DNA of 63,997 nucleotides from a virus. Taxonomy: Duplodnaviria > Caudoviricetes. Where the stretch lies: positions 1 through 63,997 of IMG/VR virus record IMGVR_UViG_3300038393_001965. One strand, given 5' to 3'. Each line of letters opens with the position of its first letter. Position 1 is the stretch's first letter. The notes beneath the pieces are model-generated. The model did not search any database. It saw nothing but the letters and a program-made list of their open reading frames with translations, and had not been told where the DNA came from. Made by a program: the position numbers and the translations under genes. Shown piece by piece: positions 5,592 to 54,074 of this stretch.

Positions 5592-5921
5592 ATGGCGAAA
5601 CAGATCGGTCCTTCGGTCCGACAGCTCGACATGCGCACCGCCCTACCGGCAGCCAAGAAGGCTGATGCCGAGCTGCTTACCCCGGAACATCGAGCTTGGC
5701 GGGAGGTCGTCCTGCAGCGTGCTGGCTTTAGATGCCAGGCCGTTGAGGACGGCCGTCGTTGCGCCGTCTCGTATCCATCACGCCTCTTCGCTGACCACAT
5801 CGTCGAGCGAAAGGACGGTGGTGCTCCGGTCGACCTCGACAACGGTCAATGCCTCTGCGGGAGGCACCACACCATCAAGACCACCGCTGCTCGAGCTGAA
5901 CGGATGAAGGTCCGCTTCTGA
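5592..5921 (+). CDS. HNH endonuclease (terminase cofactor, HK97 gp74-like)
   Basis: ADHIVE...GG...NGQCLCGRHH; directly upstream of the terminase genes. Confidence 0.9.
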   Translation: MAKQIGPSVRQLDMRTALPAAKKADAELLTPEHRAWREVVLQRAGFRCQAVEDGRRCAVSYPSRLFADHIVERKDGGAPVDLDNGQCLCGRHHTIKTTAARAERMKVRF

Positions 5922-6301
5922 TGAAGAACACGTTCAAGATCACGGTGGGTGAGACCCCTGCCTTGTGCAGCATCGAATTAAACGGCCAGAAGCTGCACGG
6001 CGTCACTAGCGTCTCCTTCGACCTCGATGGTCAGAGGAAACCAAGCGCTCTCCGACTGGAGATCATCGGCGAGATCCTGGTCGACGGTGAGTTCCACGAC
6101 CGTGTCATCGCGTCGACGGAACCGCACGATCCCGACAGACAACCCCGAGACGTTGAACTGGGGGGGGTCTCAATCTCTGGGCGAACTGGGGGTCGGAACC
6201 GCCCGGGGCTCATGTTCACAAAATTTTTTTCGCCACCCCGGAAAACTGGATTGTGGCGCCCGGAACCCGAAAATAATCGGTTGTTGTCGAAGCCAGCATG
6301 A
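5921..6301 (+). CDS. Hypothetical protein; 3' end runs over the putative cos region
   Basis: TGATG coupling to HNH. Confidence 0.55.
   Translation: MKNTFKITVGETPALCSIELNGQKLHGVTSVSFDLDGQRKPSALRLEIIGEILVDGEFHDRVIASTEPHDPDRQPRDVELGGVSISGRTGGRNRPGLMFTKFFSPPRKTGLWRPEPENNRLLSKPA
6159..6232. other. Putative cos / packaging initiation region
   Basis: G-run ... AAAATTTTTTT between HNH and terS, the usual cos position in HK97-like phages. Confidence 0.45.
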
Positions 6302-6756
6302 AGACACCCAAACGCGGACGCGGTCGGCCGGCGTTCAAGCCGACGCCCGCGATGCGGCGCATCGTCGAGCTGATGGTCTCCTGCGGCGACAGCAAGGAAA
6401 CGGTCTCCCGGGCGATCGGTTGCTCGGTGCCGACGCTCGAACTCCATTTCGACGAGGAGTTGAAGAACGGTTACGCGAAGAAGCGCCGTGAGATCCTGAC
6501 CTGGATGGAGCGAGGCGCGCGGAAGGGTAATGCCACCCTGATCAAGCGGCTCGAGGAGATGACCAGGGTTACCGGTGCCGCGGCGGACTTCGAGGCACAG
6601 CAGAAAGACGGCAACGCAGCTGCGCCTGTCGCTGGCCCTGCGCGGGCGGCAAAGCGCGGCAAGAAGGAAGTCCAACGCGAGGACGCCTTTCACGCCGGCA
6701 CGAATTCCGAATGGGGTGACGATCTCGCACCGATCGCGGGCACGAAGCCGAACTGA
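6298..6756 (+). CDS. terS: Terminase small subunit
   Basis: GRGRP + HTH (IGCSVPTLELHF), KKE...A..AG C-terminus; coupled to terL. Confidence 0.8.
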   Translation: MKTPKRGRGRPAFKPTPAMRRIVELMVSCGDSKETVSRAIGCSVPTLELHFDEELKNGYAKKRREILTWMERGARKGNATLIKRLEEMTRVTGAAADFEAQQKDGNAAAPVAGPARAAKRGKKEVQREDAFHAGTNSEWGDDLAPIAGTKPN

Positions 6757-8612
6757 TGACGTGGTCGACAGCGTGCCTCGACTGGGAGGCTCGCATAGTC
6801 TCTGGCCGTAGCCTGATCCCCGACGGCCTACCCATCGACAGCGCACGCGCGGAGAAGGCGCTGCGCATCTTCAAGCGGCTGCGGGTGAAGGACATCATCG
6901 GCAAGCCGACGCTGGGCGAGGTCTGCCCTCAGTGGATCTTCGATCTCGTATGGGTCGTCTTCGGCGCCCATGATAGCGTGGCAAAACGGCAGCTGATCCG
7001 CGAATTCCTCATCCTGATCAGCAAGAAAAACGCGAAATCGACACTCGCCGCCGGCATTATGGTGACAGCGCTGATCATGAATCAGCGGGCGATGGGCGAG
7101 TATCTGATCCTGGCGCCGACAAAGGACGTCGCCGACAACAGCTTCCTGCCGGCACACGGCATGATCACCGAGGACGACGCGCTCTATAAGCGGTTCAAGC
7201 CCAGCGATTCTACCCGCGAGATCGTCAACCGGTTGGATGGGTCTGTCCTGGCGGTGAAGTCGGCTGACGCCGACGTCGTCGGCGGGCAGAAAGCAATCAG
7301 CTTTTTCGTCGACGAGGTCTGGCTTTTCGGCAAGAAGGCGTCCTCGGCGAACGTGTTGTCGGAGGTTGCCGGTTCGCAGGCGTCGCGACCGGAAGGGTTC
7401 GGGATCTATGCCACGACGCAGAGCGACGACCCGCCGACCGGCGTCTTCGCGTCGAAGCTGCTCTATCATCGCGGCGTTCGTGATGGCAAAATCGACGATC
7501 CGACGTCGCTCCCCCTGATTTATGAATATCCCGGGGAGATGGCGAAGGAGAAGGCTTGGCGAGACCCGAAGACTTGGCACATCCCGAATCCGAGCCTTGG
7601 GTATTCCGTCGACAAGCAGTGGTTGACCACCGAGCTGCGCAAGAAGGAGCTCGAAGGCACCGCCGAACTCAGCCTTTTCGTCTCGAAGCACTTCAACATC
7701 GAAGCCGGACTTGGGCTGAAGTCTGGCAGCTGGGCCGGTGCCGAATTCTGGCTCGAAAACCCGAAGACAGGGAAGTCGAACGTCGACCGATCGTTGACGC
7801 TCCATGAAGTGATCCGCCGATCGGAAGTCATCACCATCGGTATCGACGGTGGTGGTCTCGACGATTTGCTCGGTCTTGCTGTGCTCGGTCGTGAGGAATG
7901 GAGTGGCGATCTCCTGTTGTGGTCGCACGCCTGGGCGCACGAGATCGTGAAGTCGCGGCGAACCGATATCGCGTCGAAGTTGGATGAGCTCTCCGACGCC
8001 AAGGAGTTGACCTTCGTCAAGCTGCCTGGTGAGGACGTCTACCAGCTCGCGCAGATCGTCTTCGAGGTCGAGGATTCGGGCAAGCTCGCTTTCGAGAATT
8101 CGATCGGCGTCGACTCATTCGGTGTCGCCGCTATCACCAAGGCGCTGACCGGAGAAGAAAGCCCGATCGACAAGGACCGCATCGTCGGTATTTCGCAGGG
8201 CTGGAAGCTCAACGGCGCCATCAAGGACACCGAGCGTGATCTCGCCGGCGGCGTCATCAAGCATAACGGCGGCGCCCTGATGAGCTTCGCCGTCGGCAAC
8301 GCGAAGGTGGTGCCGCGCGGTAACGCGATCTCGATCGACAAGCAGGAATCCGGCTCCGCCAAGATCGATCCACTGATGGCGGCCATTCACGCCAAAGTCC
8401 TCATGGGGCTCAATCCCCAGCCGGGTCGATCCGTGTACGACATCATGGATGATGAGGAAGAAGGCGCCGTTTCGCAGGAATCGGATGCCGAAGACCCGCT
8501 ATCAGACGACATCGACCCGCAGATCCTTGCCGATCCTTGGCATCCGCGGTGGCAAGAGATGAAGGACCGGTGGGAGCGCAAGCACCTGGCCGGCGACGAG
8601 GAAGTGTACTGA
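6756..8612 (+). CDS. terL: Terminase large subunit
   Basis: Walker A ISKKNAKST; FVDEVW; NPSLG; GIDGGGLDDL; KIDPLMA. Confidence 0.95.
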   Translation: MTWSTACLDWEARIVSGRSLIPDGLPIDSARAEKALRIFKRLRVKDIIGKPTLGEVCPQWIFDLVWVVFGAHDSVAKRQLIREFLILISKKNAKSTLAAGIMVTALIMNQRAMGEYLILAPTKDVADNSFLPAHGMITEDDALYKRFKPSDSTREIVNRLDGSVLAVKSADADVVGGQKAISFFVDEVWLFGKKASSANVLSEVAGSQASRPEGFGIYATTQSDDPPTGVFASKLLYHRGVRDGKIDDPTSLPLIYEYPGEMAKEKAWRDPKTWHIPNPSLGYSVDKQWLTTELRKKELEGTAELSLFVSKHFNIEAGLGLKSGSWAGAEFWLENPKTGKSNVDRSLTLHEVIRRSEVITIGIDGGGLDDLLGLAVLGREEWSGDLLLWSHAWAHEIVKSRRTDIASKLDELSDAKELTFVKLPGEDVYQLAQIVFEVEDSGKLAFENSIGVDSFGVAAITKALTGEESPIDKDRIVGISQGWKLNGAIKDTERDLAGGVIKHNGGALMSFAVGNAKVVPRGNAISIDKQESGSAKIDPLMAAIHAKVLMGLNPQPGRSVYDIMDDEEEGAVSQESDAEDPLSDDIDPQILADPWHPRWQEMKDRWERKHLAGDEEVY

Positions 8613-8616
8613 TCCC

Positions 8617-10023
8617 ATGACAGCCATCGCCTCGGTGCCGCGTGTCCGGATCAAGGGCACAGGCATCTATATCAACGAGCTCTTCGCGCAGCGCGAGGTG
8701 ACGGAGCCGCGTTACCCAAATCGTCGTCGCGTTTATGATGGGCCGCGCACGCTCGCCGGCGTCGCGATCACACCGGACACTGCCGTCACGATCTCGACGG
8801 TCTGGGCGTGCCTTCGCTACCTCTCGCAGACCGTTGGGGTGATGCCCTGGCGCGTCATGAAGGAGGTACGACAAGGCGCCGACATCCAGAAGAACCATCC
8901 TGTCGACTGGCTACTCTATAAGCGGCCGAGTGCGGAATGGTCGTCGATGCAGTTCCGCGAGACGCTCACCCACTGGGCGCTCCGCTGGGGTAATGGTTAC
9001 GCCGAGATCGAGCCCGACCAGCTCGACCGGCCCTTTGCGATGTGGCCGATCCATCCGGAGCGCGTCTATGTCTGCCGGGCCATCGAGGATGGCTATAGCA
9101 GCTCCGGCGATCCGATCCTCACCGGCGAGTTGTTCTACGACGTCAACAACGGTGACGGCACCGGCGGTGGCCGCATCAAGATCGCGGCGAAGAGGATGTT
9201 TCACATCCGCGGCTTCGGTGAAGGTCCAGTTGGCGTCAACGTTATCCATTACGCGGCCGAAACGCTCGGTTGGGCGAAGGCGGCGCAACTCTTCGGTGCC
9301 TCGTTCTTCGGTAATGGCGCCACCCCGGCGACGGTTGTTCTTAACAAGAAGCCGCTGAAGACGAAGGGGCTGCAGCGGCAGCGCGCTGAATTTGAGCAGC
9401 TCTACAAAGGGCCGCGCAACGCCAACAAGACGGCGTTCCTCGACAACGAAGCCGATATCAAGACAATCGGTCTCGATGCCGAAAAAAGCCAACTGCTGCA
9501 GACCCACCAATATCTCGTCGAGGAGATCTGCCGGTGGTTTGGTGTACCGCCGCATAAGGTCATGCATCTCCTGCGGGCGACGTTCTCCAACATCGAGCAG
9601 CAGGGCATCGAGGTCGTCGTCGACAGCATTTCCCCATGGGTGAAGCGTTTCGAGGATGAGGCTGATTTCAAACTGTTCGGCCAGAACCGCGGCAACCTCT
9701 ACACCAAGATCAACATGCGGGCGCTGATGCGGGGCGATTCCCAGACGCGCGGCGAATACTACAAGCTGATGCGGGAAGCCGGTGCCTATTCGCCGAACCG
9801 GATCCTGCAGCTCGAGGACGAAAACACGATCGGTCCCGATGGCGACATCCACACGATGAATTCGACGTACACCACGCTCGAGCGGATCGCGAACCCGCCG
9901 GAGCCGACGGCTCCGCCCCAAAAGCAGCCGCCGGCCGAACCTGCGAACGGCCCCGTCGACGCCGCTACGGAGACGACGCTGCAGCGGATCGAACGCGAAC
10001 TGGAGTTGGTTGATGCCGCTTAA
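8617..10023 (+). CDS. Portal protein, HK97 family
   Basis: [43 protein letters not shown]. Confidence 0.95.
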
Positions 10024-10981
10024 GTCGCAGATCACCAATCGAGCGGATAACCCGCCACAGAACCCGCCGAGGCGGCCACTCGACGAGGCGGTGGCAATTC
10101 TCACCAAGGGTCTTGACGCCGTCCTGGGGCGGCTAAAGAAGCTTGAGGCGCAGCCGGCTGGTCGCGACGGTCGCGATGGCATCGCCGGCCAGGTCGGTGC
10201 GCAGGGTGAACGAGGCCCACAGGGCGAACGCGGCGAGATCGGCCCGGCCGGCCACGAAGGCGCTGTTGGGCCGCGCGGCGAACGCGGCGAGACCGGGCCG
10301 CGCGGCGAACGCGGCGAAACAGGTCCGCAAGGGGACGCTGGACCAGCAGGCCCGCGTGGTGACGTCGGCCCGCAGGGCGCCGCCGGCGATATCGGTCCGG
10401 CAGGCCCCCAAGGCGAGCACGGCGAAACCGGAGCGCAGGGGGAACCTGGCCCGCGCGGAGAAGCCGGCCCTCAAGGTCTGGCCGGTGAGAACGGCCGCGA
10501 TGGTGCCATCGGACCTGCTGGCGCCGCTGGGGAGCAAGGTCCTCGCGGGGAACGGGGCGAACCGGGACCGGCTGGCGCCCAGGGCGAACGCGGTCCCGCC
10601 GGCGAACAGGGTATTGCCGGCCGGGATGGCCGTGACGGTCAGCCTGGCGCCATGGGCGATCGCGGACCCGAGGGGCGAGCCGGCGAGACCGGGCCGCAGG
10701 GCGAGGCTGGACCGCCGGGCCCGACCGGCGAACCCGGTCCTATGGGACCTGCCGGCGCGCGCGGACTTCAGGGGGAACGCGGCGAAGCTGGTCCAGTCGG
10801 TCCGAAGGGGCCGCGCGGCGATCGTGGCCTCGACGGTCCAGCCGGAAAAGATGGCAGTGACGGAGCCACCTTCGAATTCAGCGATTCCTATCCGCTTTCG
10901 CCGACCGACCTCAACAATCTGCGTGTCGTCGAAATGACCGATCAGCACGGCGCCGTCCGCCGAGTCATCACACTTGATTGA
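10013..10981 (+). CDS. Collagen-like protein (79 uninterrupted G-X-Y triplets)
   Basis: GRD...GAT triplet run flanked by a short helical N-terminus and small C-terminal domain; GGAG RBS. Confidence 0.9.
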
Positions 10982-10988
10982 GGGGCAA

Positions 10989-11687
10989 ATGGCGAAACTT
11001 ATCAAGCAGCTGCAGGCGAAGTCAGAGGCGACCATCAAGGTCGTCGCCAGAGGTGCGCAGCGCGCCGAGATATACGTCTATGGCGTCATCGGTGGCGACT
11101 GGTTCGGCGACGGCGCCACGGCCTCGCAGTTCGCCAAGGATCTGAAGGCGGTCGGCAACGTCAGCGATATCGATCTTCATATCGATAGCGAGGGCGGCTC
11201 TGTCCAGGATGCCCAGGCGATGTATACCCTCCTCGTCGCTCACGCCGCCAAGATCACCACGCATATCGACGGCTGGGCTTGTTCCGCGGCCTCGTTCCTC
11301 GCCATGGCCGGCGAGGAGATCATCATCGGCGAAGGCGGTATGTTCATGATCCACAACGCCCAGATGGTGGCGTGGGGAGAAGCCGAGGATTTCGATCGCG
11401 CCGCCGCACTGCTGCGCACCACCAATCAGACCATCCTGCAGAAATATGTCGATCGCACCGGGTTGGCCGCCGATAAGGTGAAGGCCTGGATGGATGCGGA
11501 GACCTGGTGGACCGGCAAGGAAGCCGTCGACGCCGGCTTCTGCGACAAAGTGGTCTCGAACCTGAAGATCGCCGCGGTGGCAGCACGCGACGGCAAGCGT
11601 GACGTCTCGCGCTTCACTAACGTGCCGCTGGCACACCGCCCGCGCCGCAACCTCGCCGCGGCCAGGCTGGCAGCTCTCGCGAAATAG
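10989..11687 (+). CDS. ClpP-type head maturation protease
   Basis: IYVYGVIG, IDSEGGSV, DGWACSAAS, MFMIHN, ETWWTGKEAVDAGFCD. Confidence 0.95.
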   Translation: MAKLIKQLQAKSEATIKVVARGAQRAEIYVYGVIGGDWFGDGATASQFAKDLKAVGNVSDIDLHIDSEGGSVQDAQAMYTLLVAHAAKITTHIDGWACSAASFLAMAGEEIIIGEGGMFMIHNAQMVAWGEAEDFDRAAALLRTTNQTILQKYVDRTGLAADKVKAWMDAETWWTGKEAVDAGFCDKVVSNLKIAAVAARDGKRDVSRFTNVPLAHRPRRNLAAARLAALAK

Positions 11688-11761
11688 GAATCCCGGGCCG
11701 GTCCGGTAAGCCCATCCGCGCCTTGGGCAAGCGCACCAACCTCCCAAGATTGGAGAACTCT

Positions 11762-13222
11762 ATGACCAAGCACGTTGTGCTGCGGGCCGGCAACGGCTTG
11801 CTCCTGAATCGCGCGTTTCTCGGCGCGCTGATGACCGGTCGCGCCGGCTTCGGCCCGATCGTCATGGACGCCGTCACCGCGCTTGAGGAGCGCCGCGACG
11901 AGCTCATGGCGGCATCTCAGGCGATCATCGCCGCTGCCGATGAGGCCGAAATCGATCTCACCGACGAGGAGACCGACAAGATCGAGGCCAACGCGGCCGA
12001 GGTTGCCAAGATCGATCGACAGATCGCAGCTCGCAAGGCGATGGCGACTCCGCAGGGCCAGGGTCGCAAGACGACGCCGGAACCGCAGAATAAGAACGGC
12101 AGTGGCGACGGCCAGGGTCGTCGTGTCCCGGCGCAGCCGCGCATGGATAACCAACGTCATGGCTTCGCATCGTTCGGCGCATTTGCAACGGCAGTAAGCG
12201 GCCATTACACCCGTAAGGAGAACGACGAGGTCACCAAGCTGCGCAACGCCGCGACGACCTTTGGCAACGAAGGCACCGGCGCCGACGGTGGCTTCCTCGT
12301 CCCGCCGGAGTTCTCCGAAAGGATCTGGCAGAAGGTCGAGGCTGAGGAGAACCTCCTCACCCGTTGCGCCCCGCTGGTCACCAGCAAGAACGGCATGGCG
12401 ATCCCAAAGGATGAAACCACGCCTTGGCAGAACTCCGGCGGCATCCAGGTCTACTGGGAGGGCGAAGGCCAGGCGCCGGCGGGTAGCAAGCCGGCGCTCG
12501 AGCTCGGCACGTTGCGTCTCGCCAAGCTGTTCGGCCTTGTCCCGATCAGCGAGGAGCTGCTCGATGACGCCCCCGGCCTCGAATCCTGGCTGATGGTCAA
12601 GGCGCCGTCCAAGATGACGGCGAAGATCAACACCTCGATCGTCGCCGGCACCGGCGTCGGCCAGCCGCTCGGCATCATCCCAGGCTACTCGGCCGTCGGT
12701 GCCTCCGTCGTCCAGGTGTCGAAGGAGACCTCTCAGCCGGCCGATACGGTCTGGTTCGCCAACATCAACAAAATGTGGGGCCGCATGTATGCGGGCTGGC
12801 GCCGCAACGCGATCTGGCTGATCAACCAGGATGTGGAACCGCAGCTGGAAGGCATGGCCTTCGTCGGCAACGGCATCACCCCGACCGCGGCGTCGAGCAC
12901 CCCGGCTTACATGCCTCCGGGTGGCGTCGCCGATGCGCCTTACGCCCGCCTCAAGGGTCGCCCCGTCGTTCCGATCGAGGCTTGCGCCGCGCTTGGCGAC
13001 CTCGGCGATATCATCCTGTGCGACCTCAATCAGTACTGGGCGCTCACCAAGGCCGGCGGCATCACGACCGACACCTCGATCCACCTCTACTTCGATCAGG
13101 CGCTGACCGCCTTCCGTTTCATCTTCCGCGTCAACGGCCAGCCCGCCTGGTCGAGCACGATCACCCGCCAGAACGGCTCGTCCAACGAGCTGTCCTGGGC
13201 GGTGGCGCTGCAGGCTCGGTAA
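11762..13222 (+). CDS. Major capsid protein, HK97 fold with delta domain
   Basis: Coiled-coil N-terminus, DGGFLVPPEF, ISEELLDD, GTGVGQPLGI, LKGRPVV. Confidence 0.95.
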   Translation: MTKHVVLRAGNGLLLNRAFLGALMTGRAGFGPIVMDAVTALEERRDELMAASQAIIAAADEAEIDLTDEETDKIEANAAEVAKIDRQIAARKAMATPQGQGRKTTPEPQNKNGSGDGQGRRVPAQPRMDNQRHGFASFGAFATAVSGHYTRKENDEVTKLRNAATTFGNEGTGADGGFLVPPEFSERIWQKVEAEENLLTRCAPLVTSKNGMAIPKDETTPWQNSGGIQVYWEGEGQAPAGSKPALELGTLRLAKLFGLVPISEELLDDAPGLESWLMVKAPSKMTAKINTSIVAGTGVGQPLGIIPGYSAVGASVVQVSKETSQPADTVWFANINKMWGRMYAGWRRNAIWLINQDVEPQLEGMAFVGNGITPTAASSTPAYMPPGGVADAPYARLKGRPVVPIEACAALGDLGDIILCDLNQYWALTKAGGITTDTSIHLYFDQALTAFRFIFRVNGQPAWSSTITRQNGSSNELSWAVALQAR

Positions 13223-13303: not shown

Positions 13304-13840
13304 ATGAACCAGCTCTTCGTTGAAGGCCACCAGGTCGTCCTGGGCTTCAAGCCGGTGGCGTTGAACACCGCCGCCAACTCCGGCGACATCGTGTCGCTCA
13401 AGAACTATGGTCGCTGCACCGTCATGTTCATCAAGGCGGTCGGTACCGCTGGCGATGATCCGACGCTCTCGTTCAAGCAGTACACCGATGTCGGCGGCAC
13501 CGGCATCAAGGCTCTCGCCTGCACCCGCATCGACAAGAAGCAGGCTGCTACCGATCTCACCGCCGTCGGAACCTTCACGAAATCGACGAGTGACAGCCCG
13601 GCGTCGAATGACACCTTCAACACCACCAACGGCACCTGGACGAACTCCGATCTTGCGGAGCAGGCCGCCATCGTCGTGGCAGATTTCAAGGCCGAAGATC
13701 TCGACATCGCCAACGGGTTCGATTGCTTGTCCTGCAATGTCGGCGATGTCGGCACCAACGCCCAACTTGGCACTCTGATCTACATCTTGGGCGAGCCCCG
13801 CTACTCCAAGGAAACGGTGCCATCGGCGATCGTCGATTAA
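13304..13840 (+). CDS. Putative head decoration / minor capsid protein
   Basis: Beta-rich, Thr-rich; immediately after capsid gene. Confidence 0.55.
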   Translation: MNQLFVEGHQVVLGFKPVALNTAANSGDIVSLKNYGRCTVMFIKAVGTAGDDPTLSFKQYTDVGGTGIKALACTRIDKKQAATDLTAVGTFTKSTSDSPASNDTFNTTNGTWTNSDLAEQAAIVVADFKAEDLDIANGFDCLSCNVGDVGTNAQLGTLIYILGEPRYSKETVPSAIVD

Positions 13841-13911
13841 TCGCCCCTCGTTCGAGTTTGCCTCCGGCTGAACCGGCCGGGGGCTAATCTTTTCGCAATG
13901 GAGATCCGACA

Positions 13912-14319
13912 ATGAAATTGCGTTTTGTTCAGAAGGCGCCTGGCCGCCATGAATACCAGGTTGGCAAGATCTATGACTTCAACGGCCCCGTAGAAGAAGG
14001 CTACGCCGCCAAGTATATCGACCGCGGCTGGGCAGTTGAAGTCGGCGGCGGCAAGAAGCAGGAACCCCCCGCCGATGCCGGCGATGTCACCAAGACCGAC
14101 GACGGCGGCAAGGGCTCCGGCGACACCGATGTCGGCCAGATCGGCACCGTCGATCGCGACGCCATCACCATCCCCGATGGCTGGGCTGACCTGCCCGCTT
14201 CCGACCTTCGCGCGCTTGCCGACTCCGTGGCCGACGCTCCGACCAAGAACAAGGCCGAAGCCGTCGCCGCCGTCGAGGCTGAGCTAGCCCGCCGCGCCGC
14301 TGCCAGCCAGCAGCAGTGA
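13912..14319 (+). CDS. Virion-associated protein with C-terminal HeH/LEM-like helices
   Basis: WADLPASDLRALA...TKNKAEAVAAVEAE; G/D/T-rich linker. Confidence 0.5.
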   Translation: MKLRFVQKAPGRHEYQVGKIYDFNGPVEEGYAAKYIDRGWAVEVGGGKKQEPPADAGDVTKTDDGGKGSGDTDVGQIGTVDRDAITIPDGWADLPASDLRALADSVADAPTKNKAEAVAAVEAELARRAAASQQQ

Positions 14320-14855
14320 TCGATCCGGCCGCCTTCGTCCACCCGAAGGCTCACGTCGACGCCGAGACGGTCAGCCTCGGCGCCGGCACCAAGGTGTTCC
14401 AGTTTGCCAGCGTGACGCGCGGCACCAGGATCGGCGCCGATTGCGTGATCTGGCCATTCGCCATGCTCGACGGTCCTGTCATCGGGGATAGGTGCAAGGT
14501 GGCCAGCGGCGTCACGATGGGGCCCGGCTTCAAGATCGGGAACGATTGCTTCATCGGTCCCAACGTCGTGCTGGCGAATGACTGCTGGCCGTTCGCCGAG
14601 ATGACCGGGGTCGATCACGAGAAGCTCACCGATGGCGTTCATTTCGCGGTGGTGATCGAGGACGGCGCCGTCATCGGTGCGAATTCCACGCTGCTGCCCG
14701 GCATCACGATCGGCGCCGGTGCCGTTGTCGCCGCGGGGTCGCGCGTGACGCGCAGCCTTCCGCCTAGCGCGGTGTGGCGCGCCGAAAACGGCTACATCAG
14801 CCAGGTACCGAAAAATTGGCGCGAGAAGCGCATGCGCTGGGCGAGGTCCGCCTGA
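14316..14855 (+). CDS. Hexapeptide-repeat (left-handed beta-helix) acetyltransferase, sugar acetyltransferase-like
   Basis: IDPAAFVHP; IGNDCFIGPNVV; IEDGAVIGANSTLLPGITIGAGAVVAAGSRVT. Confidence 0.9.
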   Translation: MIDPAAFVHPKAHVDAETVSLGAGTKVFQFASVTRGTRIGADCVIWPFAMLDGPVIGDRCKVASGVTMGPGFKIGNDCFIGPNVVLANDCWPFAEMTGVDHEKLTDGVHFAVVIEDGAVIGANSTLLPGITIGAGAVVAAGSRVTRSLPPSAVWRAENGYISQVPKNWREKRMRWARSA

Positions 14856-15481
14856 TGCTCACCGTGGCAACGGCGTTCTGGGACGCCAACGCGGCGTCCT
14901 TCGACTTCAGTCGCCGCTACTCGGAGGAATGGGTCGACAAGCTCTTTCGCGGCTTTATGCGCAATCTCACGATGCCGTTTCAATTCGTCTGCTTCACGGA
15001 AAGACCTCGCGAGTTCCGCGAAGAGATCATCCAGGAGCCGCTCACCATTGAGCCGCCGGACTATCGGTGCCTGATCGAGCCGTATCGGCTTGGCGAACCG
15101 ATGATCCTGGTTGGGCTCGACACCGTCGTCACCGGAAGCTGCGACGCCCTGGCCGACTATGTGCTGGGCGGTGGCGAGCTCGCGCTCCCGCGCGATCCGT
15201 TCTCACGCGAGCGCGCCTGCACTGGTGTCGTCCTGGTGCCGGCCGGCCGCGAAAGCATCTGGTTGAACTACACCGGCCGCGACGACATGGAGCACATGCG
15301 GGCGCAACCGCACGCCTTCATCGATGATCTCTTCCCAGGCCAGGTGCTGAGCTGGAAGGGCGACATCAGGAATATCGGGCTTGAGACGCTACCCGCCGGT
15401 GCGCGGATCATCTATTTCCACGGTGCCGACAAGCCGCATGAGCTCGGCCACCTCGATTGGGTCTGGGAACATTGGAGCTAG
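14855..15481 (+). CDS. Glycosyltransferase, GT-A (GT8-like) fold
   Basis: YSEEWVDKL...RNL..PFQFVCFTE; GLDTVVTG (DxD-like); IIYFHGADKPHE. Confidence 0.75.
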   Translation: MLTVATAFWDANAASFDFSRRYSEEWVDKLFRGFMRNLTMPFQFVCFTERPREFREEIIQEPLTIEPPDYRCLIEPYRLGEPMILVGLDTVVTGSCDALADYVLGGGELALPRDPFSRERACTGVVLVPAGRESIWLNYTGRDDMEHMRAQPHAFIDDLFPGQVLSWKGDIRNIGLETLPAGARIIYFHGADKPHELGHLDWVWEHWS

Positions 15482-16119
15482 ATCGTTGGGCCCCGCAGCC
15501 GACCTGGCGCGGTATGGCTGCCTTCGTCATCGCATCGGGGCCCAGTCTCACCCGCGATGTCTGCGATAAGATCAGGGGCCACAACGCCATCGTCGTCAAC
15601 GCGTCGTTCCGGCTGGCGCCCTGGGCGCCGATCTTGTTCTTCACCGACAGCAGCTTCTACGAACAATACTGGGATGCCGTCGAAGCCTGGAACGGCGAGA
15701 TCGTGACGCTCTCGAAGGCGGCGAAGCGCGATCTCAGCGATCGTGTCCAGCTGCTCGCCTCTGAAGGCGATCCTTCGCTGCCATTGCTCGATTTCCCGCC
15801 GGCTGGCGCTCCTGCAGTCGCCCAAGGAAGGACCAGCGGCCACACCGCAACTTCGGTGGCAGTCGCGCATCGACCCGCCCACCTCGGTCTTGTCGGTTTC
15901 GACATGCGCGTCGTCGATGGCCGCGAGCACCACCACGCCGAGTACAAAGGTCCGCGCGATCTCGACGTCTATGCCAGCGATTATGTGCCAGCCTTCGTCG
16001 GCTGGAATGCCGCGGCACTGCGCGCGGGCGTCAAAATCTGGAACTGCACGCCGGGATCGGCCGTGAACGAATTCGAATTTGCCGACGTCGACGAGGTCAT
16101 CGCATGCGCTCGATCCTGA
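15472..16119 (+). CDS. Maf/DUF115-like (sialyltransferase-type Rossmann fold) putative glycosyltransferase
   Basis: FVIASGPSL; AIVVNAS; FFTD; TSGHTA; LGLVGFDM; start position uncertain. Confidence 0.65.
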   Translation: MELDRWAPQPTWRGMAAFVIASGPSLTRDVCDKIRGHNAIVVNASFRLAPWAPILFFTDSSFYEQYWDAVEAWNGEIVTLSKAAKRDLSDRVQLLASEGDPSLPLLDFPPAGAPAVAQGRTSGHTATSVAVAHRPAHLGLVGFDMRVVDGREHHHAEYKGPRDLDVYASDYVPAFVGWNAAALRAGVKIWNCTPGSAVNEFEFADVDEVIACARS

Positions 16120-16751
16120 CGGTGACATCACCTGCGGGTGACCGCACGCTGCTCACCATCGCCGAGATGCGGGAAGCCGCCGGCGTCACCGTGAACACCT
16201 ACGACACCCAGCTGCAGAGCATCGAGAAGCGGATCACTGCCGCGATCACGACGGAATGCAATATCGCCATCGGTTCCGGTGCGCCACCGACGCTGCGCCA
16301 GGAAACGCTGACCGAGACGTTTTATCAGATATATGGCGAAGAGCTTGTCCTCTCTCGCCGGCATGAGATCTCGGTCTCAAGCCTGGTCGAGGATGGCGTC
16401 ACGCTCACCGATGCCGACATTATCGTCGACCCCGAAACCGGGATCATGAACAAGATCTGCAACGATTATCCGACCTGGTGGTCGGCGCGGAAGATCGTGG
16501 TCGTCTATAACGCCGGGTTCGCCACTGTCCCCGACGATCTGAAGATGGCGGCGATCGAGTTCATGCGCACCACCTGGCTCGGTGCCTCGCGCGACCCGCT
16601 GGTGAAGAGCCAGCGCGTCCGGGTCTACGATGTCGACGAGACCGAAACACAATACTGGGTCGGGTCGGTGCCGGGCCAATCAAGCGAAAGCGCGGTGCCG
16701 GATATCGTCGCCGGTCAGCTCACCCGCTTCAGGATCGCGGCGGTCGGCTAA
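16104..16751 (+). CDS. Head-tail adaptor (gp6-like)
   Basis: LLTIAEMR; VVYNAGFATVPDDLKMAA. Confidence 0.85.
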   Translation: MRSILTVTSPAGDRTLLTIAEMREAAGVTVNTYDTQLQSIEKRITAAITTECNIAIGSGAPPTLRQETLTETFYQIYGEELVLSRRHEISVSSLVEDGVTLTDADIIVDPETGIMNKICNDYPTWWSARKIVVVYNAGFATVPDDLKMAAIEFMRTTWLGASRDPLVKSQRVRVYDVDETETQYWVGSVPGQSSESAVPDIVAGQLTRFRIAAVG

Positions 16752-30689: not shown

Positions 30690-31423
30690 CGACATCAAAC
30701 CGCCTCGGCATCACCGAGATGGCGGAAGCGCAGAACAACCGTTCCGTCACCGTCAATGAGGCGATCGCCATCCTCGAGGCTGTCGGAGGCGGCAACACCC
30801 AGGCCGTAAGCGTCGGCGATAACGCACCTCCGGGATCACCCGCCGAGGGAGATGTCTACGTGGTCGGCACGGCCGGCACAGGCGCCTTCAGCGGTCATAA
30901 CAAGGCGATCGCGATCTATTACAACGCGGCGTGGATCTTCGTCGCGCCGCTCGAAGGCTTCAAGGCATACGATCAGACGAGCGACACCAAATACCTCTAT
31001 GACGGTTCGGCCTGGTCGGCGGAGGCCAGCGCGCTCGCGAAGGCGACTACCGCACAGGTGCGCGCCGCAACGGCCGACAAAGCGCTGACCGCCGACAACG
31101 TCTACAGCGCCGCGGCAGAGGTGACGCTCGCCGATGCCGCGACGGTGGCGGTCGACATGGCAACCTTCATCAACGGCGTGGTTACGTTGGCCGGCAACCG
31201 CACGCTTGGCCAGCCGTCGAACACAAAGGTCGGGCAAAGCGGCGTCATCCGCATCGTTCAGGATGGAACTGGAAGCCGCACGCTGGCCTATCATGCGGAT
31301 TGGAAGTTCGCCGGCGGCGTCGATCCCACACTATCAACGGCCGCAGGTGCGGAAGACCTCCTCTTCTACCAGGTGATCGGCGCCAACAAGATCTATGCCA
31401 ATCTGGTGAAGGCAATCGGCTGA
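30686..31423 (+). CDS. DUF2793 tail protein with variable C-terminus
   Basis: VTVNEAIAILE; PPGSPAEGDVYVV; W.FVAP.EG. Confidence 0.85.
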   Translation: MTTSNRLGITEMAEAQNNRSVTVNEAIAILEAVGGGNTQAVSVGDNAPPGSPAEGDVYVVGTAGTGAFSGHNKAIAIYYNAAWIFVAPLEGFKAYDQTSDTKYLYDGSAWSAEASALAKATTAQVRAATADKALTADNVYSAAAEVTLADAATVAVDMATFINGVVTLAGNRTLGQPSNTKVGQSGVIRIVQDGTGSRTLAYHADWKFAGGVDPTLSTAAGAEDLLFYQVIGANKIYANLVKAIG

Positions 31424-31836
31424 TGATCCCCGGCATCGGTGCCAGCATTGGCGGCCTCGCCGGCCTCGCGCCGCTTGTGATCGGTGGCACACCCGTCACA
31501 ACTGCAACCCAGGGCGTCGCCTACTCTGGCTTCACCGCCTCGGCCAGCGGCGGCGCGACCCCATACACCTTTTCTCTCGTCGGCAGCTGGCCGACCGGTA
31601 TCTCGATAAACTCATCCACCGGTGCCGTATCGGGCACTCCGACGGCATCTGGCACTTTCGCCAGTCTCTCCGTGCGGGTGACCGACAATCTCGGCGCCAC
31701 CGCCGATCTCGCAACATTCACGCTGACGGTCGGGGTATCGGCATCCATCAGGCAGGCGATGGGTCGCGCCGCCTTCATCAACAGCAACGGCACGCGCCAG
31801 TCCATCGGTCTCGGCGCCTTCATCAACGAGGGATAA
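31423..31836 (+). CDS. Putative Ig-domain (He_PIG-like) virion protein
   Basis: ASGGATPYTFS...PTGISINSSTGAVSGTPT. Confidence 0.8.
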   Translation: MIPGIGASIGGLAGLAPLVIGGTPVTTATQGVAYSGFTASASGGATPYTFSLVGSWPTGISINSSTGAVSGTPTASGTFASLSVRVTDNLGATADLATFTLTVGVSASIRQAMGRAAFINSNGTRQSIGLGAFINEG

Positions 31837-31839
31837 CGG

Positions 31840-33171
31840 ATGGCGACCTATTATCTCCGGTCTGGCGCCGCCGGCGCGGCCAACGGAACGAGCTGGGCGA
31901 ATGCGTACACGACGCTCACAGCGGCGCTCTCTGGAAAATCGGCCGGCGATACCATCTTCGTCTCCGAAGATCATTCCGAAACCACTGCGCTCGATCTCAC
32001 ATTCACTTCACCGGGCAGCGCGGCAGCTCCATGCAGAGTGATATGTGTCGATCACACCGGTTCCGTGCCCCCAGTTTCGGCGGACAGACGCTCGACGGCA
32101 GCGATTTCGACATCGGCCGGCAATGACATCAACTTCACCGGCGGCAACATCATCTATGAAGGCATCATTTTTTCCGCTGGTAGCTCCAGCAGCACGGCCA
32201 GAATATTCGCCACGACATCCACCGACCAATCGGTCAAATTCAAGAATTGCGCGCTTCGCATCGCCACGACGTCGAGCAGCGGCAACATCGTTTTGGGCAG
32301 CAGTTCCGCCGGCGGGAGCCTGATCGTTCTCGACAACACCACGGTGCAGTTCTCATCCACGGCGCAGACGATTTCCTGCACGGCCAGCCTGTTGTGGATG
32401 AATACGCCATCGGCGATCACTGGCGCCACGATCCCGACGATCCTGCTCTCCAGCGTTTCAGGCAATCGCAGCGCGCGGTTCGACCTGCGCGGCGTGGATC
32501 TGAGCGCCGCTGGTTCGGGCAAGACGCTATTCGATCTTGCACTGAGCGGCGTCATTGAGATCGTCGCTTCCATGGTCGATTGCAAGATCGATTCCGCGGT
32601 GACCCTGACGACGCGCCCGCCTGCGCGCGGCTCCGGTGGTCTGGATTATCTGCGCTGCGACAGCGGCGGCACGAACTACAAGCATGGACGAGTGCGCTAC
32701 GAGGGGACGCTCACCGAGGAAACCACGATCGTCAGAACGGGCGGCGCCAACGATGGCACCACGACGATCTCGTGGAAGATCGTCACCACCGCCAACTCGA
32801 ACGAGTTCTATCCTTTCGAAAGCCTGCCGATCGCGATCTGGAATGACACCACGGGCTCATCGGTGACCGCGACAATCGAGGGTATCTGGGGCGGTGGCGC
32901 CGTCCCGAATAACGACGACATCTGGATCGAAGCCGAATATCTCGGCTCAAGTGGATCGCCGCTGGCATCGTTTGTCAACGATGGCAAGGCCGACATCCTG
33001 GCGGCGAATGCCGGTCACACCTCGAGTTCCGAGACCTGGGGCGGCAGCACGACCAAGTTCAAGATGGCGGTGACATTCACGCCGCAGCAGAAAGGTTGGG
33101 TGTTCGTTCGCGTCAAGGCGGCGAAAGCCTCGTCGACGTTCTACATCGACCCGAAGATCACGCTCTCCTGA
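31840..33171 (+). CDS. Putative receptor-binding / tailspike protein (beta-helix-like)
   Basis: YY...NGTSWANAYTTL..AL...AGDTIFV start; Ser/Thr-rich; last tail gene. Confidence 0.6.
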   Translation: MATYYLRSGAAGAANGTSWANAYTTLTAALSGKSAGDTIFVSEDHSETTALDLTFTSPGSAAAPCRVICVDHTGSVPPVSADRRSTAAISTSAGNDINFTGGNIIYEGIIFSAGSSSSTARIFATTSTDQSVKFKNCALRIATTSSSGNIVLGSSSAGGSLIVLDNTTVQFSSTAQTISCTASLLWMNTPSAITGATIPTILLSSVSGNRSARFDLRGVDLSAAGSGKTLFDLALSGVIEIVASMVDCKIDSAVTLTTRPPARGSGGLDYLRCDSGGTNYKHGRVRYEGTLTEETTIVRTGGANDGTTTISWKIVTTANSNEFYPFESLPIAIWNDTTGSSVTATIEGIWGGGAVPNNDDIWIEAEYLGSSGSPLASFVNDGKADILAANAGHTSSSETWGGSTTKFKMAVTFTPQQKGWVFVRVKAAKASSTFYIDPKITLS

Positions 33172-34057: not shown

Positions 34058-35047
34058 TTATTTCTCGCGGATAGCAGATGCACCTGCCAGCGCGGGCGCC
34101 GTTGCGACGCTCGCTTCCCGGCCAATCCATCGGATGAGCGTAATCGACACGACGGCGACGACCGCGCCGCCAATGATGTCCATCAGGTGGTGACCTCCCT
34201 CGGGGATCGTGCCGAGGATCATCAAAGCGTTGACCAGGACTATCGGCCAGAACAGCACGGTTCGCCGCATAGCGTAGACCACGAGAAGGCCGAGTGTGGT
34301 GTGAAATGACGGGAAGGAGATCAACCCGATCGTCGTCTCCACGCTGAACTCGAAAGGCGCGAGCGAGCGGAGCCGGTGAAGCGTGGTGAGATGGTCGAGC
34401 CCGCCTGTCGCCGTATAGTGGCTGTAGGACGTCGCGGCGGGGTGGTAGTAGGCGTAGGCTCCTGCTGCCGGGAAGAACATCGATATCGTCGTGGTAAACA
34501 AGAGCGTCACCACCATCAGCGCTGCGAACTCGAAAAACCGTTCTCGCCCTCCTATCGTGGCGTGGAACAGAAAGACCAACTGCCCTTGGTAGAGGATTGA
34601 CGTGTAGCAGGCGACGAGGATTGCGGCGAGCCAAGTAGACGAGTTCGCGGCCTCGACAACGGCTGGCCAGTTGAACCCTATCGATCGGTCACCGGCCGCT
34701 ATCGCCGCATCCATCAGCGGTCGCTGCGTCGCGGCGGCAAGGTACATATAGAGGCCATTGGCGATCTGGAAGACGAAGAGCAAAGCGAAGAAGACGCCGA
34801 GGCTTTCCAGTCCTTCGGAGATCTTCGCCAGCACATCCTTCAGTGCGCCGCTCATGCGTCCGATCGGCAGGCGAAACAGCAGACCGACGCCGAAAAGTGC
34901 TGCGCCCATCGCGATGCCGCTGGCGGCGCTCGCTGCAGTGCCCGGTGCAATCGAGATGTTGGAATGAGGCAAGAGGGCGGCGTCAAGGATCGCGAGGAGC
35001 GCAATCGTGACCACAATGACTAGCAAATATCGGTGATAGGCGCCCAT
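34058..35047 (-). CDS. PAP2-superfamily multi-TM enzyme (Aur1/IPC-synthase-like subgroup)
   Basis: FPAAG, ISFPSFHT, GGHHLMDIIGG; about 8 TM segments; GGGGAG RBS. Confidence 0.85.
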   Translation of the reverse strand: MGAYHRYLLVIVVTIALLAILDAALLPHSNISIAPGTAASAASGIAMGAALFGVGLLFRLPIGRMSGALKDVLAKISEGLESLGVFFALLFVFQIANGLYMYLAAATQRPLMDAAIAAGDRSIGFNWPAVVEAANSSTWLAAILVACYTSILYQGQLVFLFHATIGGRERFFEFAALMVVTLLFTTTISMFFPAAGAYAYYHPAATSYSHYTATGGLDHLTTLHRLRSLAPFEFSVETTIGLISFPSFHTTLGLLVVYAMRRTVLFWPIVLVNALMILGTIPEGGHHLMDIIGGAVVAVVSITLIRWIGREASVATAPALAGASAIREK

Positions 35048-35129
35048 CGCTCCCCCCGAGCCTTGCCTGACAATGCCCCGCAACGCCTGAAACCGCAACT
35101 TCCGCAACAACGGAAAAGGGAAATCAACC

Positions 35130-36062
35130 ATGGACACCACGTTCAAGGGCGTCGTCGCGCGCCTGAGCGACACCGATCTTCCGCGCATCGGCTATGGCAT
35201 TGGCGTCGGCGAGGATGAGATCCACGCCTTCCTCGATGTCGAAACCGCCGGCGGTGGTTACGACGACGAAGGTCGCCCGAAGATCCTTTTCGAGCCGGCC
35301 CGATTCTACGCGCATCTCTCCGGCGCCGCCAGGGCGCAGGCTGTTGCCGCCGGTCTTGCCGCCCCCAGGTGGGGCGACATCCCTTACGGCCCGCAATCGA
35401 GCCAGTATCCGAAACTCGTCCAAGCCATCGCGATCGACGAGACCGCGGCGCTGATGTCGACGTCCTGGCAGATCGGCCAGGTGCTCGGCGAGAACTTCGG
35501 CGCCGCCGGCTATGACAGCGTTCAGGCCTTCGTTGCCGACATGGTCAACGGAGGCGAGGCCGCCGGGCTTCAGGCTGCCGTCAACTTCATCAAGGCCAAC
35601 CACCTCGACGACGAGCTCCGCAACCACCAATGGGCGGCCTTCGCGCGGGGGTACAATGGCCCTGGATATGCTCGCAATTCATACGATACGAAGCTCGCCG
35701 CCCGCTTCAAATGGTGGCAGGGCAGGCCCGATACGCCGTGGACGCCGCCGAAGCCGGACGACGCCGCACCGCCGGTGCCGGTGCCGACACCCAAACCCTC
35801 GATCACAATCTATGTGCTCACCTGGGGGAGCAGCGACGTCCCGCGCGAGACCCGCTATTTCACCCCGGACCACGGCACCGATGCCGTCATGCGGCTGTCG
35901 GAACGCGTCATCGAGCTCGACAAGGCTCCGGCGAACGCCGCCTTCGCGTCGCTGTCGCGTCTTCCCGACAGCATCTACCCAGAAGGGATGACGCTCGCCT
36001 CTTGGACGAAGACAAGCGACGAGCGGCCCACTGACGAGGGCAGCCTGGAAGTGCCGGCATGA
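35130..36062 (+). CDS. Endolysin, N-acetylmuramidase (DUF3380-type) with Pro linker and unknown C-terminal domain
   Basis: DVETAGGG, PKILFE, STSW..GQVLGEN, WAAFARGYNGPGY..NSYD.KL. Confidence 0.92.
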   Translation: MDTTFKGVVARLSDTDLPRIGYGIGVGEDEIHAFLDVETAGGGYDDEGRPKILFEPARFYAHLSGAARAQAVAAGLAAPRWGDIPYGPQSSQYPKLVQAIAIDETAALMSTSWQIGQVLGENFGAAGYDSVQAFVADMVNGGEAAGLQAAVNFIKANHLDDELRNHQWAAFARGYNGPGYARNSYDTKLAARFKWWQGRPDTPWTPPKPDDAAPPVPVPTPKPSITIYVLTWGSSDVPRETRYFTPDHGTDAVMRLSERVIELDKAPANAAFASLSRLPDSIYPEGMTLASWTKTSDERPTDEGSLEVPA

Positions 36063-52974: not shown

Positions 52975-53331
52975 CTACCGGTTGATATTTGTACCCAGCG
53001 CATCGCATCGGGCGATGACGTTCGATGCTTCTGCAGCACCGTCTGCAAGGCTGGTGAGAAAGAACTGACCGTCGCCGTAGAGCTTGCCGTAAAATGGGGC
53101 AGGCCCGGCGTAGCCGCCGAGTTCGTTTTTCGCGTTCACGGTTCCGCAGACGATCGTCTCGCCGGTGACCTGGGGCGCCGCCGACATCGCTGAAAACCTT
53201 GCACTGTCGGGATCCTTGAGGATGCCTAGAATCGTTGATTGCACGGCTGCCTGCTGGCCTTCCGATAGAGATGCAGCACCGGCAGGCCATGCGACGGCCG
53301 CACAAATCGCGGCTATCCCGATTCGCCTCAT
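52975..53331 (-). CDS. Secreted protein co-transcribed with cI
   Basis: Signal peptide; LKDPDSA...VCGTVNAKNELGGY; ATGA overlap with cI. Confidence 0.8.
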   Translation of the reverse strand: MRRIGIAAICAAVAWPAGAASLSEGQQAAVQSTILGILKDPDSARFSAMSAAPQVTGETIVCGTVNAKNELGGYAGPAPFYGKLYGDGQFFLTSLADGAAEASNVIARCDALGTNINR

Positions 53332-53993: not shown

Positions 53994-54074
53994 GTGGGAA
54001 TTATCCAACCCACGCTCCTGACAAGCGAGGGGGAAGTTTCCTATTGACGAAGTAGGATTGATCCCACTATCGTT
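53993..54074 (+). promoter_or_regulatory. PR promoter with three operators
   Basis: Operators 53993-4010, 54028-45, 54051-68; TTGACG-17 nt-CTATCG. Confidence 0.85.

Follow-up and report, generated by a model that had tools for sequence, protein, structure and literature searches.

A conserved Maf-like glycosyltransferase cassette in the head operon of a temperate siphophage and its possible role in virion glycosylation

What do three carbohydrate-enzyme genes do in the middle of a phage head operon? The question is raised by the virus record IMGVR_UViG_3300038393_001965 (Duplodnaviria; Caudoviricetes), whose 63,997 nucleotides we analysed as a whole and call the window. Between its head genes and its head-tail adaptor gene, at 14316-16119, lie genes for a hexapeptide acetyltransferase of the left-handed beta-helix (LbH) type, a GT-A glycosyltransferase (GT) and a transferase related to Maf and GT42 enzymes, hereafter the Maf-like protein. 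An earlier note on this DNA had read them as a cassette that builds an acetylated glycan, with Maf-type nonulosonic acid transfer as precedent, on virion proteins. We find that the cassette is real and conserved, and we give a probability of about 0.55 to the reading that it is a cytoplasmic glycosylation module for a head protein of the virion. The identities of the enzymes, the coupling of their genes, the absence of sugar-synthesis genes and the parallel with known virion glycosylation are retained from the earlier note, whereas the nonulosonic donor, the acetylated glycan and the collagen and tail targets are not.

Three overlapping enzyme genes behind the capsid gene

The three genes lie on the + strand exactly where they had been placed before: the LbH acetyltransferase (179 amino acids, aa) at 14316-14855, the GT (208 aa) at 14855-15481 and the Maf-like transferase (220 aa, the catalytic core only) at 15457-16119. 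Upstream and on the same strand are the gene of the HK97-type major capsid protein (11723-13222, 499 aa, Pfam Phage_capsid E 8.1e-43), directly after it the gene of a 178-aa protein (13304-13840), and the gene of a 135-aa protein (13912-14319) whose only match is phrog_4926 at E 0.0019. The head-tail adaptor gene (16104-16751, +, phrog_442 E 9.8e-21) forms the downstream boundary, and the position of the cassette between head genes and adaptor is confirmed on both sides.

The translational coupling is also borne out by the sequence, each gene from that of the 135-aa protein to the adaptor gene overlapping the next. GTGA (14316-14319) holds both the end of the 135-aa gene and the GTG start codon of the LbH gene, the LbH stop and the GT start share TGATG (14853-14857), the Maf-like gene starts 10 or 25 nucleotides (nt) inside the end of the GT gene, and the adaptor ATG at 16104 is located 16 nt within the Maf-like gene. 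The true start of the GT is ATG 14855 and not GTG 14774 of the longest open reading frame (ORF). For the Maf-like protein we use TTG 15457, TTG 15472 being also possible; the database gene call P0001 begins the protein at ATG 15514 (201 aa), which would remove W11 and P13, residues that are nearly invariant among the homologues. We prefer the earlier start because these residues are conserved upstream of ATG 15514 and because the structural model is confident from about residue 11.

No promoter-like site was found between 9467 and 20184, and the position of the cassette, taken by itself, suggests that it is expressed late. None of the five proteins of the cassette region has a membrane-like segment, their hydropathy maximum being at most 1.46 versus 2.93 for a PAP2 membrane protein of the window. 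Sugar-synthesis genes are indeed absent: there are none among the 65 ORFs scanned with Pfam, and the complete 63,997-base record has no DegT gene.

To the first enzyme, Pfam Hexapep assigns a score of 90.6 bits (E 2.7e-26) against a cut-off of 27 and Hexapep_2 a score of 52.7 against 27, which confirms its identity as a hexapeptide acetyltransferase. Its best sequence matches in the PDB are the WxcM-like protein 4mzu (1.1e-23) and the N-acetyltransferase entries 7s43 and 7s3u (about 6e-22; 5.8e-22 for 7s43), followed by the WlbB-type enzyme 3mqg (8.3e-13) and QdtC (3.5e-9); O-acetyltransferases match at 1e-7 or weaker. For TIGR03570 (NeuD/PglB/VioB) the protein scores 86.2 bits, below the cut-off of 160.8. 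The acetylated glycan of the earlier note does not follow from these matches, as the closest solved relatives N-acetylate nucleotide-linked 3-amino sugars, and a sugar of this kind would be the likeliest substrate class. Judged from these similarities, the enzyme is probably an N-acetyltransferase of a nucleotide-linked (3-)amino sugar and is more likely to tailor the donor sugar than to O-acetylate a finished glycan. Hyphomicrobiales make UDP-GlcNAc3N for lipid A, and this compound is a candidate substrate.

The second enzyme matches phrog_1962 'glycosyltransferase' at E 4.1e-41, and its AlphaFold2 (AF2) model, built from a 47-row alignment, shows a GT-A fold with a predicted local distance difference test score (pLDDT) of 96.4 and a predicted template modelling score (pTM) of 0.92. 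The best fold match is glycogenin, of family GT8, with a Z score of 17.1 and a root-mean-square deviation (rmsd) of 2.8 over 189 residues (VIA; Foldseek was also run). Next come the Skp1 alpha-galactosyltransferase (Z 16.3) and LgtC and GlyE (both Z 15.6); a lower-scoring match (Z 13.0) is the GT domain of LH3, an enzyme that modifies collagen. Among 794 candidates, 515 are database homologues at E <=0.001, and H190-G191..K194 near the C-terminus are invariant in the family. The protein matches nothing in Pfam, Glyco_transf_8 included, and nothing in NCBIfam.

The third enzyme belongs with phrog_4603 (E 3.5e-35), whose PHROG label 'alpha-2,3-sialyltransferase' is an annotation only. Its Maf/DUF115-like identity is supported by the sequences of its homologues and by its own fold: PF01973 (MptE-like/DUF115) is matched by 43 of 46 aligned homologues (best E 1.6e-9), and the AF2 model (pLDDT 94.9, pTM 0.92) ranks the central domain (residues 257-514) of the Magnetospirillum magneticum Maf 5mu5 at the top of 1000 chains (Z 14.9, rmsd 3.8, 193 residues; Foldseek E 5.1e-5). 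Other fold matches are CstII and Cst-I (Z 11.0-11.4, CstII at 11.4) and the MptE HPPK and SteA (10.3), and, more weakly, mammalian sialyltransferases and thiamine pyrophosphokinases (both Z 8-9). The structure prediction and fold search that the earlier note had proposed thus give confident GT and Maf-like models that match GT8 and Maf. Searched against the PDB by sequence, these two proteins hit nothing above chance level (aminopeptidase N at 0.0031, antibody chains, DNMT3B, PcrA), and the hits were rejected.

The Maf-like family comprises 385 homologues at E <=0.001 among 1736 candidates, and its invariant residues include G28-P29-S30, N48, D64, S127 and D149. According to a preprint (bioRxiv 10.1101/2020.06.03.131540), the residues required for Maf activity are E324 and D415 in 5mu5 and D272, S334 and D357 in the Clostridium botulinum Maf (CbMaf). 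The steps from D64 to S127 and on to D149 are 63 and 22 residues, versus 62 and 23 in the CbMaf trio, and the distance between the two aspartates is 85 in both. This agreement in spacing argues for the Maf-like protein being an active enzyme.

Conservation of the Maf-like gene, its partners and the surrounding genome

A tblastn search of 50,697 phage records with the Maf-like protein matched 46 records, all below 60% identity. Sorted by the first word of the organism name, these are Pseudomonas (20), Caulobacter (13), Brevundimonas (5), Enterobacteria, Bertelyvirus and Stenotrophomonas (2 each), Xanthomonas (1) and uncultured (1). We then surveyed the synteny of 91 loci encoding relatives, 28 viral and 63 genomic (numbered L001 upwards), using a capsid profile built from 43 ORFs that Pfam calls Phage_capsid.

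The Maf-like ORF is present in all 91 loci, accompanied in 69 by a same-strand ORF for an HK97-type capsid. This capsid gene ends less than 600 nt upstream of the Maf-like start in 26 loci, 600-1500 nt upstream in 9 and 1500-3500 nt upstream in 27, and lies elsewhere in 7; the major capsid gene therefore ends within 3.5 kb upstream, on the same strand, in 62/91. Among the 22 loci without an HK97-type ORF, L026-L030 have a DUF6260/linocin-type capsid gene just upstream, and 10 have less than 2.5 kb of upstream sequence. The association of Maf-like and capsid genes spans D3-like, window-like and DUF6260-type head modules. This conserved position just after capsid genes backs the parallel with virion glycosylation that the earlier note had drawn.

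The other two enzymes are less constant. Scoring partner genes by profile or phmmer within 6 kb of the Maf-like gene, we find it together with LbH and GT in 13/91 loci, with the GT and no LbH gene in 16, with the LbH gene and no GT in 4, and without either in 58. In L026 the trio stands in the order Maf-LbH-GT, beside a different type of capsid. Other genes that Pfam identifies in these neighbourhoods encode methyltransferases (L008, L020, L024, L025, L028, L033 and L037), cupins (L019, L025), short-chain dehydrogenases/reductases (SDRs) and an FAD oxidoreductase (L019, L029), a sulfotransferase (L026), radical SAM enzymes (L028), a GDSL esterase (L009), weak pyruvyl-transferase-like ORFs (L013, L014/L039), a DegT aminotransferase beside a second Maf-like copy (L017), and a split transketolase with dehydrogenases and a GT9-like fusion (L029).

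Two of these neighbourhoods deserve a closer description. On the viral contig of L029 (2699-9576), a zinc dehydrogenase, the N-terminal and pyrimidine-binding halves of a split transketolase and an SDR adjoin the Maf-like gene, and a 791-aa fusion protein combines methyltransferase, GT9-like and GT (A2 profile) parts; from its gene content, this neighbourhood looks like a phage-encoded synthesis of an unusual sugar. On the viral contigs of L016 and L017, two Maf-like paralogues flank the adaptor region, and in L017 the DegT gene (E 1.1e-54) follows directly after the second copy.

Of the 28 viral loci, 17 also keep a collagen-like gene in this head module, and four genomic loci (L046, L054, L074 and L079, prophages of beta- and gamma-proteobacteria) carry collagen ORFs ahead of the Maf-like gene. 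The collagen-like gene was not detected in loci L026-L030 or in the D3 region. The synteny with the collagen gene that the earlier note had wanted surveyed is thus present, but the gene also accompanies cassettes without a GT (L014, L024).

The record that carries the cassette is complete (CheckV completeness 100) and consists of virus alone, and the phage is a temperate siphophage, with an S24 repressor-like gene at 53328-54170. A Pfam scan places the terminase at 6756-8612, the portal at 8617-10023, the collagen-like gene at 10010-10981 (+, Pfam Collagen E 4.3e-41) and a ClpP-type protease at 10974-11687. The collagen-like protein has 323 aa of G-X-Y repeats with several G-E-T triplets, and its gene overlaps both the portal and the prohead protease genes. 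The tail genes are of the RcGTA type (DUF2460, BR0599, Rcc01698-like). In the 71-nt gap after the 178-aa gene stands a hairpin of 11 pairs, 9 of them G-C, with a T-rich tail behind it (13860-13894, +); it is possibly a partial terminator that damps expression of the downstream genes, a lead only, as the region has 8 terminator-like sites in all, no more than the 8.7 expected by chance.

No phage record matched at the DNA level (blastn, 'distant' mode). The DNA of the record is present in 11 DNA metagenome runs from soil or rhizosphere, each a possible source of the record, and close homologues of the cassette proteins are labelled Mesorhizobium, Aminobacter, Bradyrhizobium and Reyranella. Since no integrase family appears among the window ORFs scanned with Pfam, the phage may be kept as a plasmid-like prophage. 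Further along the + strand are a protein with a GcrA-like cell-cycle regulator domain (55271-56131), a HerA/FtsK-like ATPase with a sigma-70 region 4 segment (59641-61671) and a protein with a ParB N-terminal domain (61614-63401). The strongly hydrophobic PAP2-superfamily membrane protein (34058-35188, -, PAP2_3 E 1.5e-29) is encoded between the tail genes and a muramidase gene (35130-36062) and may be a moron acting on host lipid phosphates.

Donor, acceptor and proposed mechanism

Which sugar might the Maf-like enzyme transfer? We searched 22 isolate genomes that carry such prophages and found a NeuB (PF03102) synthase in 4 of them, as compared with a CTP_transf_3 (KdsB-type) cytidylyltransferase in all 22. 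The NeuB search works, as it was positive in 9 of 14 control genomes. With the synthase missing from 18/22 host genomes, and with none in the window, the nonulosonic acid suggested by the earlier note is unlikely as a general donor. These counts make the CMP-activated form of 3-deoxy-D-manno-oct-2-ulosonic acid (CMP-Kdo) the better guess, and we put Kdo forward tentatively as the sugar transferred, with the odds still against it. The named hosts among the phage-record hits are all Gram-negative, which fits a CMP-Kdo donor, in a sample biased by the reach of the search. The transferase relatives with known donors at Z >=8 (Maf, GT42 and GT29) are known to use a CMP-activated ulosonic acid. Maf enzymes work in the cytoplasm, where they O-glycosylate Ser/Thr, and CMP-Kdo can serve them as donor; two of them move Kdo onto Ser/Thr of flagellin in E. 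coli.

The most likely acceptor, judged by composition and position, is a Ser/Thr-rich loop of the 178-aa protein. This protein is conserved beside the capsid gene within this phage group and has no Pfam or PHROG match. In the ESM Atlas the clusters closest to it, at 0.97, are viral hypotheticals, and the nearest one with a family, annotated in part as PF21190 Bbp16, stands at 0.85, a lead only. The protein may serve to decorate or cement the head. Its loop, residues 92-116, has Ser or Thr at 12 of 25 positions, more densely than any other patch in 25 ORFs of the structural region. Among 24 distinct homologues, 15 have this loop extended by 8 or 10 residues, and the GT accompanies 12/15 long-loop versus 3/9 short-loop forms (Fisher p = 0.036, uncorrected for relatedness), a weak lead. 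The collagen and tail proteins that the earlier note had named as targets receive no specific support, the collagen-like gene occurring also with GT-less cassettes and the densest patch lying in the 178-aa protein. The capsid protein is the second candidate: because D3-like phages have no 178-aa protein, it stays a candidate acceptor for the family as a whole.

Within the loop, residues 100-113 contain three consecutive N-x-T triplets (N-D-T, N-T-T and N-G-T), and most long-loop homologues retain the first two. The triplets may be N-linked sites or may have arisen by chance in a loop rich in Ser, Thr and Asn. In L037 (3105-4067) the 178-aa protein is duplicated in tandem as a single 320-aa ORF.

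The 135-aa protein, encoded just ahead of the enzymes, has a small N-terminal domain, an acidic and Gly-rich linker and a C-terminal helical segment, with 17 homologues at the same position in related loci. Its N-terminal domain resembles the D3 orf6.5 family, which is encoded between the capsid and Maf-like genes in D3-like prophages (hhalign probability 71.5%, E 3.6e-5, over 28 columns). Complex prediction of the Maf-like and 135-aa proteins scored 0.53 (runs 0.51, 0.60 and 0.53), with 0.00 for the best of 3 controls; the runs share at least 26% of contacts, the partner pLDDT is at least 67, and the verdict of the tool is weak support. The mark for such scores is reached by 116 of 157 solved complexes and 2 of 215 mismatched pairs, and scores of 0.60 or below among those passing belong to only 18 of the 157 solved complexes and to both passing mismatches. 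On this prediction, the 135-aa protein may associate with the Maf-like enzyme or determine its specificity.

In D3-like prophages (L001, which is D3, 5691-6409; L042-L092), an ORF of the orf6.5 type overlaps the Maf-like start by about 100 nt. In D3 itself the annotated start of orf7 (5951) falls downstream of the codons for the Maf-like GPSL motif, so that orf7 is probably annotated too short. A strikingly conserved Ser/Thr/Pro-rich C-terminal motif resembling SASPAAQASPQTTA, found in the orf6.5-like ORFs of 19 loci and D3, was considered as an acceptor peptide and rejected because it is the off-frame shadow of the Maf-like CIASGPSLT in the overlapping DNA.

From the folds and families of the enzymes, the overlaps of their genes and the conserved synteny, all of which are shown here, we infer a mechanism, including the activity of the module, the order of its steps, its sugars, its acceptor and its benefit. 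The module would be expressed together with the head genes and would decorate a head protein of the virion. As the Maf-like protein is the constant member of the module across phages, it would act first and on protein, the other enzymes tailoring the glycan: it would put the first sugar directly onto an acceptor Ser/Thr, presumably in the loop of the 178-aa protein, and the 135-aa protein might bind it and help to select that acceptor. Its donor would be host CMP-Kdo, the most available if a CMP-activated ulosonic acid is used as by the structural relatives. The GT8-like GT-A enzyme would extend this glycan or add a second sugar from a host UDP- or dTDP-sugar, and this GT step would be fed with a nucleotide-linked amino sugar that the LbH enzyme has N-acetylated. 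The benefit to the phage might be surface shielding or stability.

Alternatives, significance and relation to known systems

Several points weigh against a glycosylation module for a head protein. The loci share ancestry and include near-duplicates (L006/L007, L014/L039, L023/L035 and L058/L059), and their counts are not independent. The GT has no sequence match in the PDB, singly or as a profile, beyond chance-level hits, and lacks the canonical DxD motif, with the invariant G88-L89-D90-T91 standing right after strand 84-87 instead. The Maf-like protein of the window matches neither PF01973 at E <=0.01 nor any other Pfam family, and no solved structure by sequence, even as a profile; its fold is shared with pyrophosphokinases (MptE at Z 10.3, thiamine pyrophosphokinase at about 9), and its match to catalytic residues is an agreement in spacing and not a residue-level structural alignment. 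The closest characterised bacterial relatives (LgtC, CstII and WlbB) build lipopolysaccharide or lipooligosaccharide (LPS/LOS) and not glycoproteins. A glycan on any virion with this module is unreported in the limited collection of literature that we searched, in which we also found no experiment on the function of any module member. For P1, pmgO, pmgP and pmgQ are tabulated as non-essential in a CRISPR interference screen and in earlier work listed with it (PMC10695390); as they are dispensable for plaque formation, any role would be accessory.

The strongest rival, unlikely as we judge it, draws on those same relatives: the enzymes would remodel the host envelope, whether the LPS/LOS core or another surface glycan, for lysogenic conversion, superinfection exclusion or against adsorption to debris. 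LgtC (Z 15.6), CstII (Z 11.4) and the WlbB/QdtC-type acetyltransferases all act on LOS or LPS, and the phage is temperate. Yet the cassette overlaps its neighbours in the head operon and has no promoter-like site, its proteins lack membrane segments, the Maf-like gene stands behind the capsid gene across several capsid lineages, and the corresponding P7 operon is annotated in its record as lying behind a C1 repressor operator, hence off in lysogens. A virion target outside the head, be it the collagen-like protein, the 488-aa tail tube protein or the distal tail proteins, seems to us rather unlikely. It draws on the collagen-like genes of the viral and genomic loci, on the resemblance of the GT model to LH3 and on tail proteins encoded at 31300-33171 with 21-26% Ser/Thr; but the collagen-like gene also occurs beside GT-less cassettes and escapes detection in the DUF6260-type loci and D3, the LH3 match falls below those to GT8 and is generic to the GT-A fold, and it is the capsid gene, rather than tail genes, that is conserved beside the Maf-like gene.

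The fold shared with pyrophosphokinases allows another reading, which we hold to be quite improbable: the Maf-like protein would be an enzyme of the MptE or thiamine pyrophosphokinase kind, or a non-catalytic assembly factor, and the three genes would not form one pathway. PF01973 is named after such a pyrophosphokinase, SteA matches as well as MptE does, and 58/91 loci have the Maf-like gene without this GT or LbH gene. Against it, Maf leads the next-best match by 3.5 Z units, with 193 of 220 residues aligned, the invariant D/S/D trio is spaced like the activity-required Maf residues, and the neighbours are carbohydrate enzymes. Glycosylation of the phage DNA against restriction, by base hypermodification, is the least probable reading and barely merits weight. 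Phage glycosyltransferases are best known for DNA glucosylation (PMC12619734), but the Pfam scans of the window show no gene for making hydroxymethyl-pyrimidines or other modified bases, the cassette belongs to the head module and not to the replication module, and the enzymes closest to it in fold act on proteins or glycans.

Glycosylation of a head protein thus remains our preferred reading, and if it is true, heads coated with sugar would be a common feature of temperate proteobacterial phages, and the enzymes making them would belong to a different class, with a Maf/sialyltransferase-like core and a donor probably supplied by every host. This would have consequences for the stability of phages in soil and for how bacterial and animal defences recognise them, and also for phage therapy, the module being present in P1 and in D3-like Pseudomonas phages. 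It would also give functions to the long-catalogued 'morphogenetic' genes P1 pmgO/pmgP/pmgQ and D3 orf7, and provide a source of small, soluble, single-domain protein O-glycosyltransferases for glyco-engineering. A bolder version is a long shot: a widespread system of phages of Gram-negative hosts in which a minimal Maf-like enzyme, guided by the small protein as Maf-2 is by GlfM, O-glycosylates head proteins with Kdo and variable partners diversify the glycan. The donor would be CMP-Kdo, an LPS precursor present in all hosts; the acceptor would be Ser/Thr of a head decoration protein, in the window the loop of the 178-aa protein, and the partners in the window would be the GT8-like transferase and the amino-sugar N-acetyltransferase. 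The virion surface coat would then vary between phages as O-antigens do between strains.

To our knowledge, mycobacteriophages are the only phages whose own enzymes have been shown to glycosylate the virion, and no such case is known among phages of Gram-negative hosts. In mycobacteriophages the glycans sit at the C-termini of capsid and tail-tube subunits (Freeman et al. 2023, cited in PMC12619734). What the window would share with them is the modification of virion proteins by phage-encoded glycosyltransferases from host sugar donors; the differences are that the capsid and tail-tube C-termini of the window have no Ser/Thr-rich extension and that the hosts here are Gram-negative.

The Maf flagellin enzymes share with the Maf-like protein the fold, PF01973 in nearly all aligned homologues and the D/S/D spacing. 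They differ in size, the solved chain having 632 residues with flanking domains versus a 220-aa catalytic core here, and in their flagellar gene context and flagellin acceptor, as opposed to a phage head operon. GT42 enzymes (CstII and Cst-I) match the same model in fold, without a Pfam or PDB sequence match. GT8 enzymes (glycogenin, LgtC and GlyE) share the fold of the GT at Z 15.6-17.1, with 185-194 of 209 residues aligned, and their metal-binding His/Lys motif is resembled by the invariant His-Gly..Lys-Pro near the C-terminus of the window GT; the Glyco_transf_8 match and the canonical DxD set GT8 apart. A parallel for the 135-aa protein is GlfM, a small protein encoded beside Maf-2 that binds Maf and gives acceptor specificity (Unay, Kint, Viollier; bioRxiv 10.1101/2023.12.03.569772). 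In two phage lineages a small protein gene likewise precedes the Maf-like gene; GlfM is a predicted four-helix bundle in that source, to which the 135-aa protein shows no such similarity, and the analogy is one of role only.

Closest of all are the phages P1/P7 and D3, whose proteins show 27-30% tblastn identity over 86-93% of the Maf-like query. D3 orf7 and P7 HdmB belong to phrog_4603 and P7 HdmD to phrog_1962. Pseudomonas phage D3 shares the position, with orf7 between the major head gene and the head-tail adaptor, and differs in having the Maf-like gene alone. The Maf-like/GT pair recurs in P7, a myophage of E. coli, where hdmB, hdmC (a weak Maf-like paralogue) and hdmD form one operon annotated 'head morphogenesis'. 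The P1/P7 arrangement (pmgO-pmgP-pmgQ, or hdmB-hdmC-hdmD) differs in this second paralogue, in an inserted phosphatase gene and in the lack of an LbH gene, and, unlike in the window, its Maf-like and GT genes are not adjacent to the capsid gene. Already known, then, are the families as catalogued under PHROG labels, the P1 pmg genes and D3 orf7; new are the three-gene form containing the LbH enzyme, the evidence from host genomes against nonulosonic acids, the loop proposed as acceptor and the small partner protein with its conservation.

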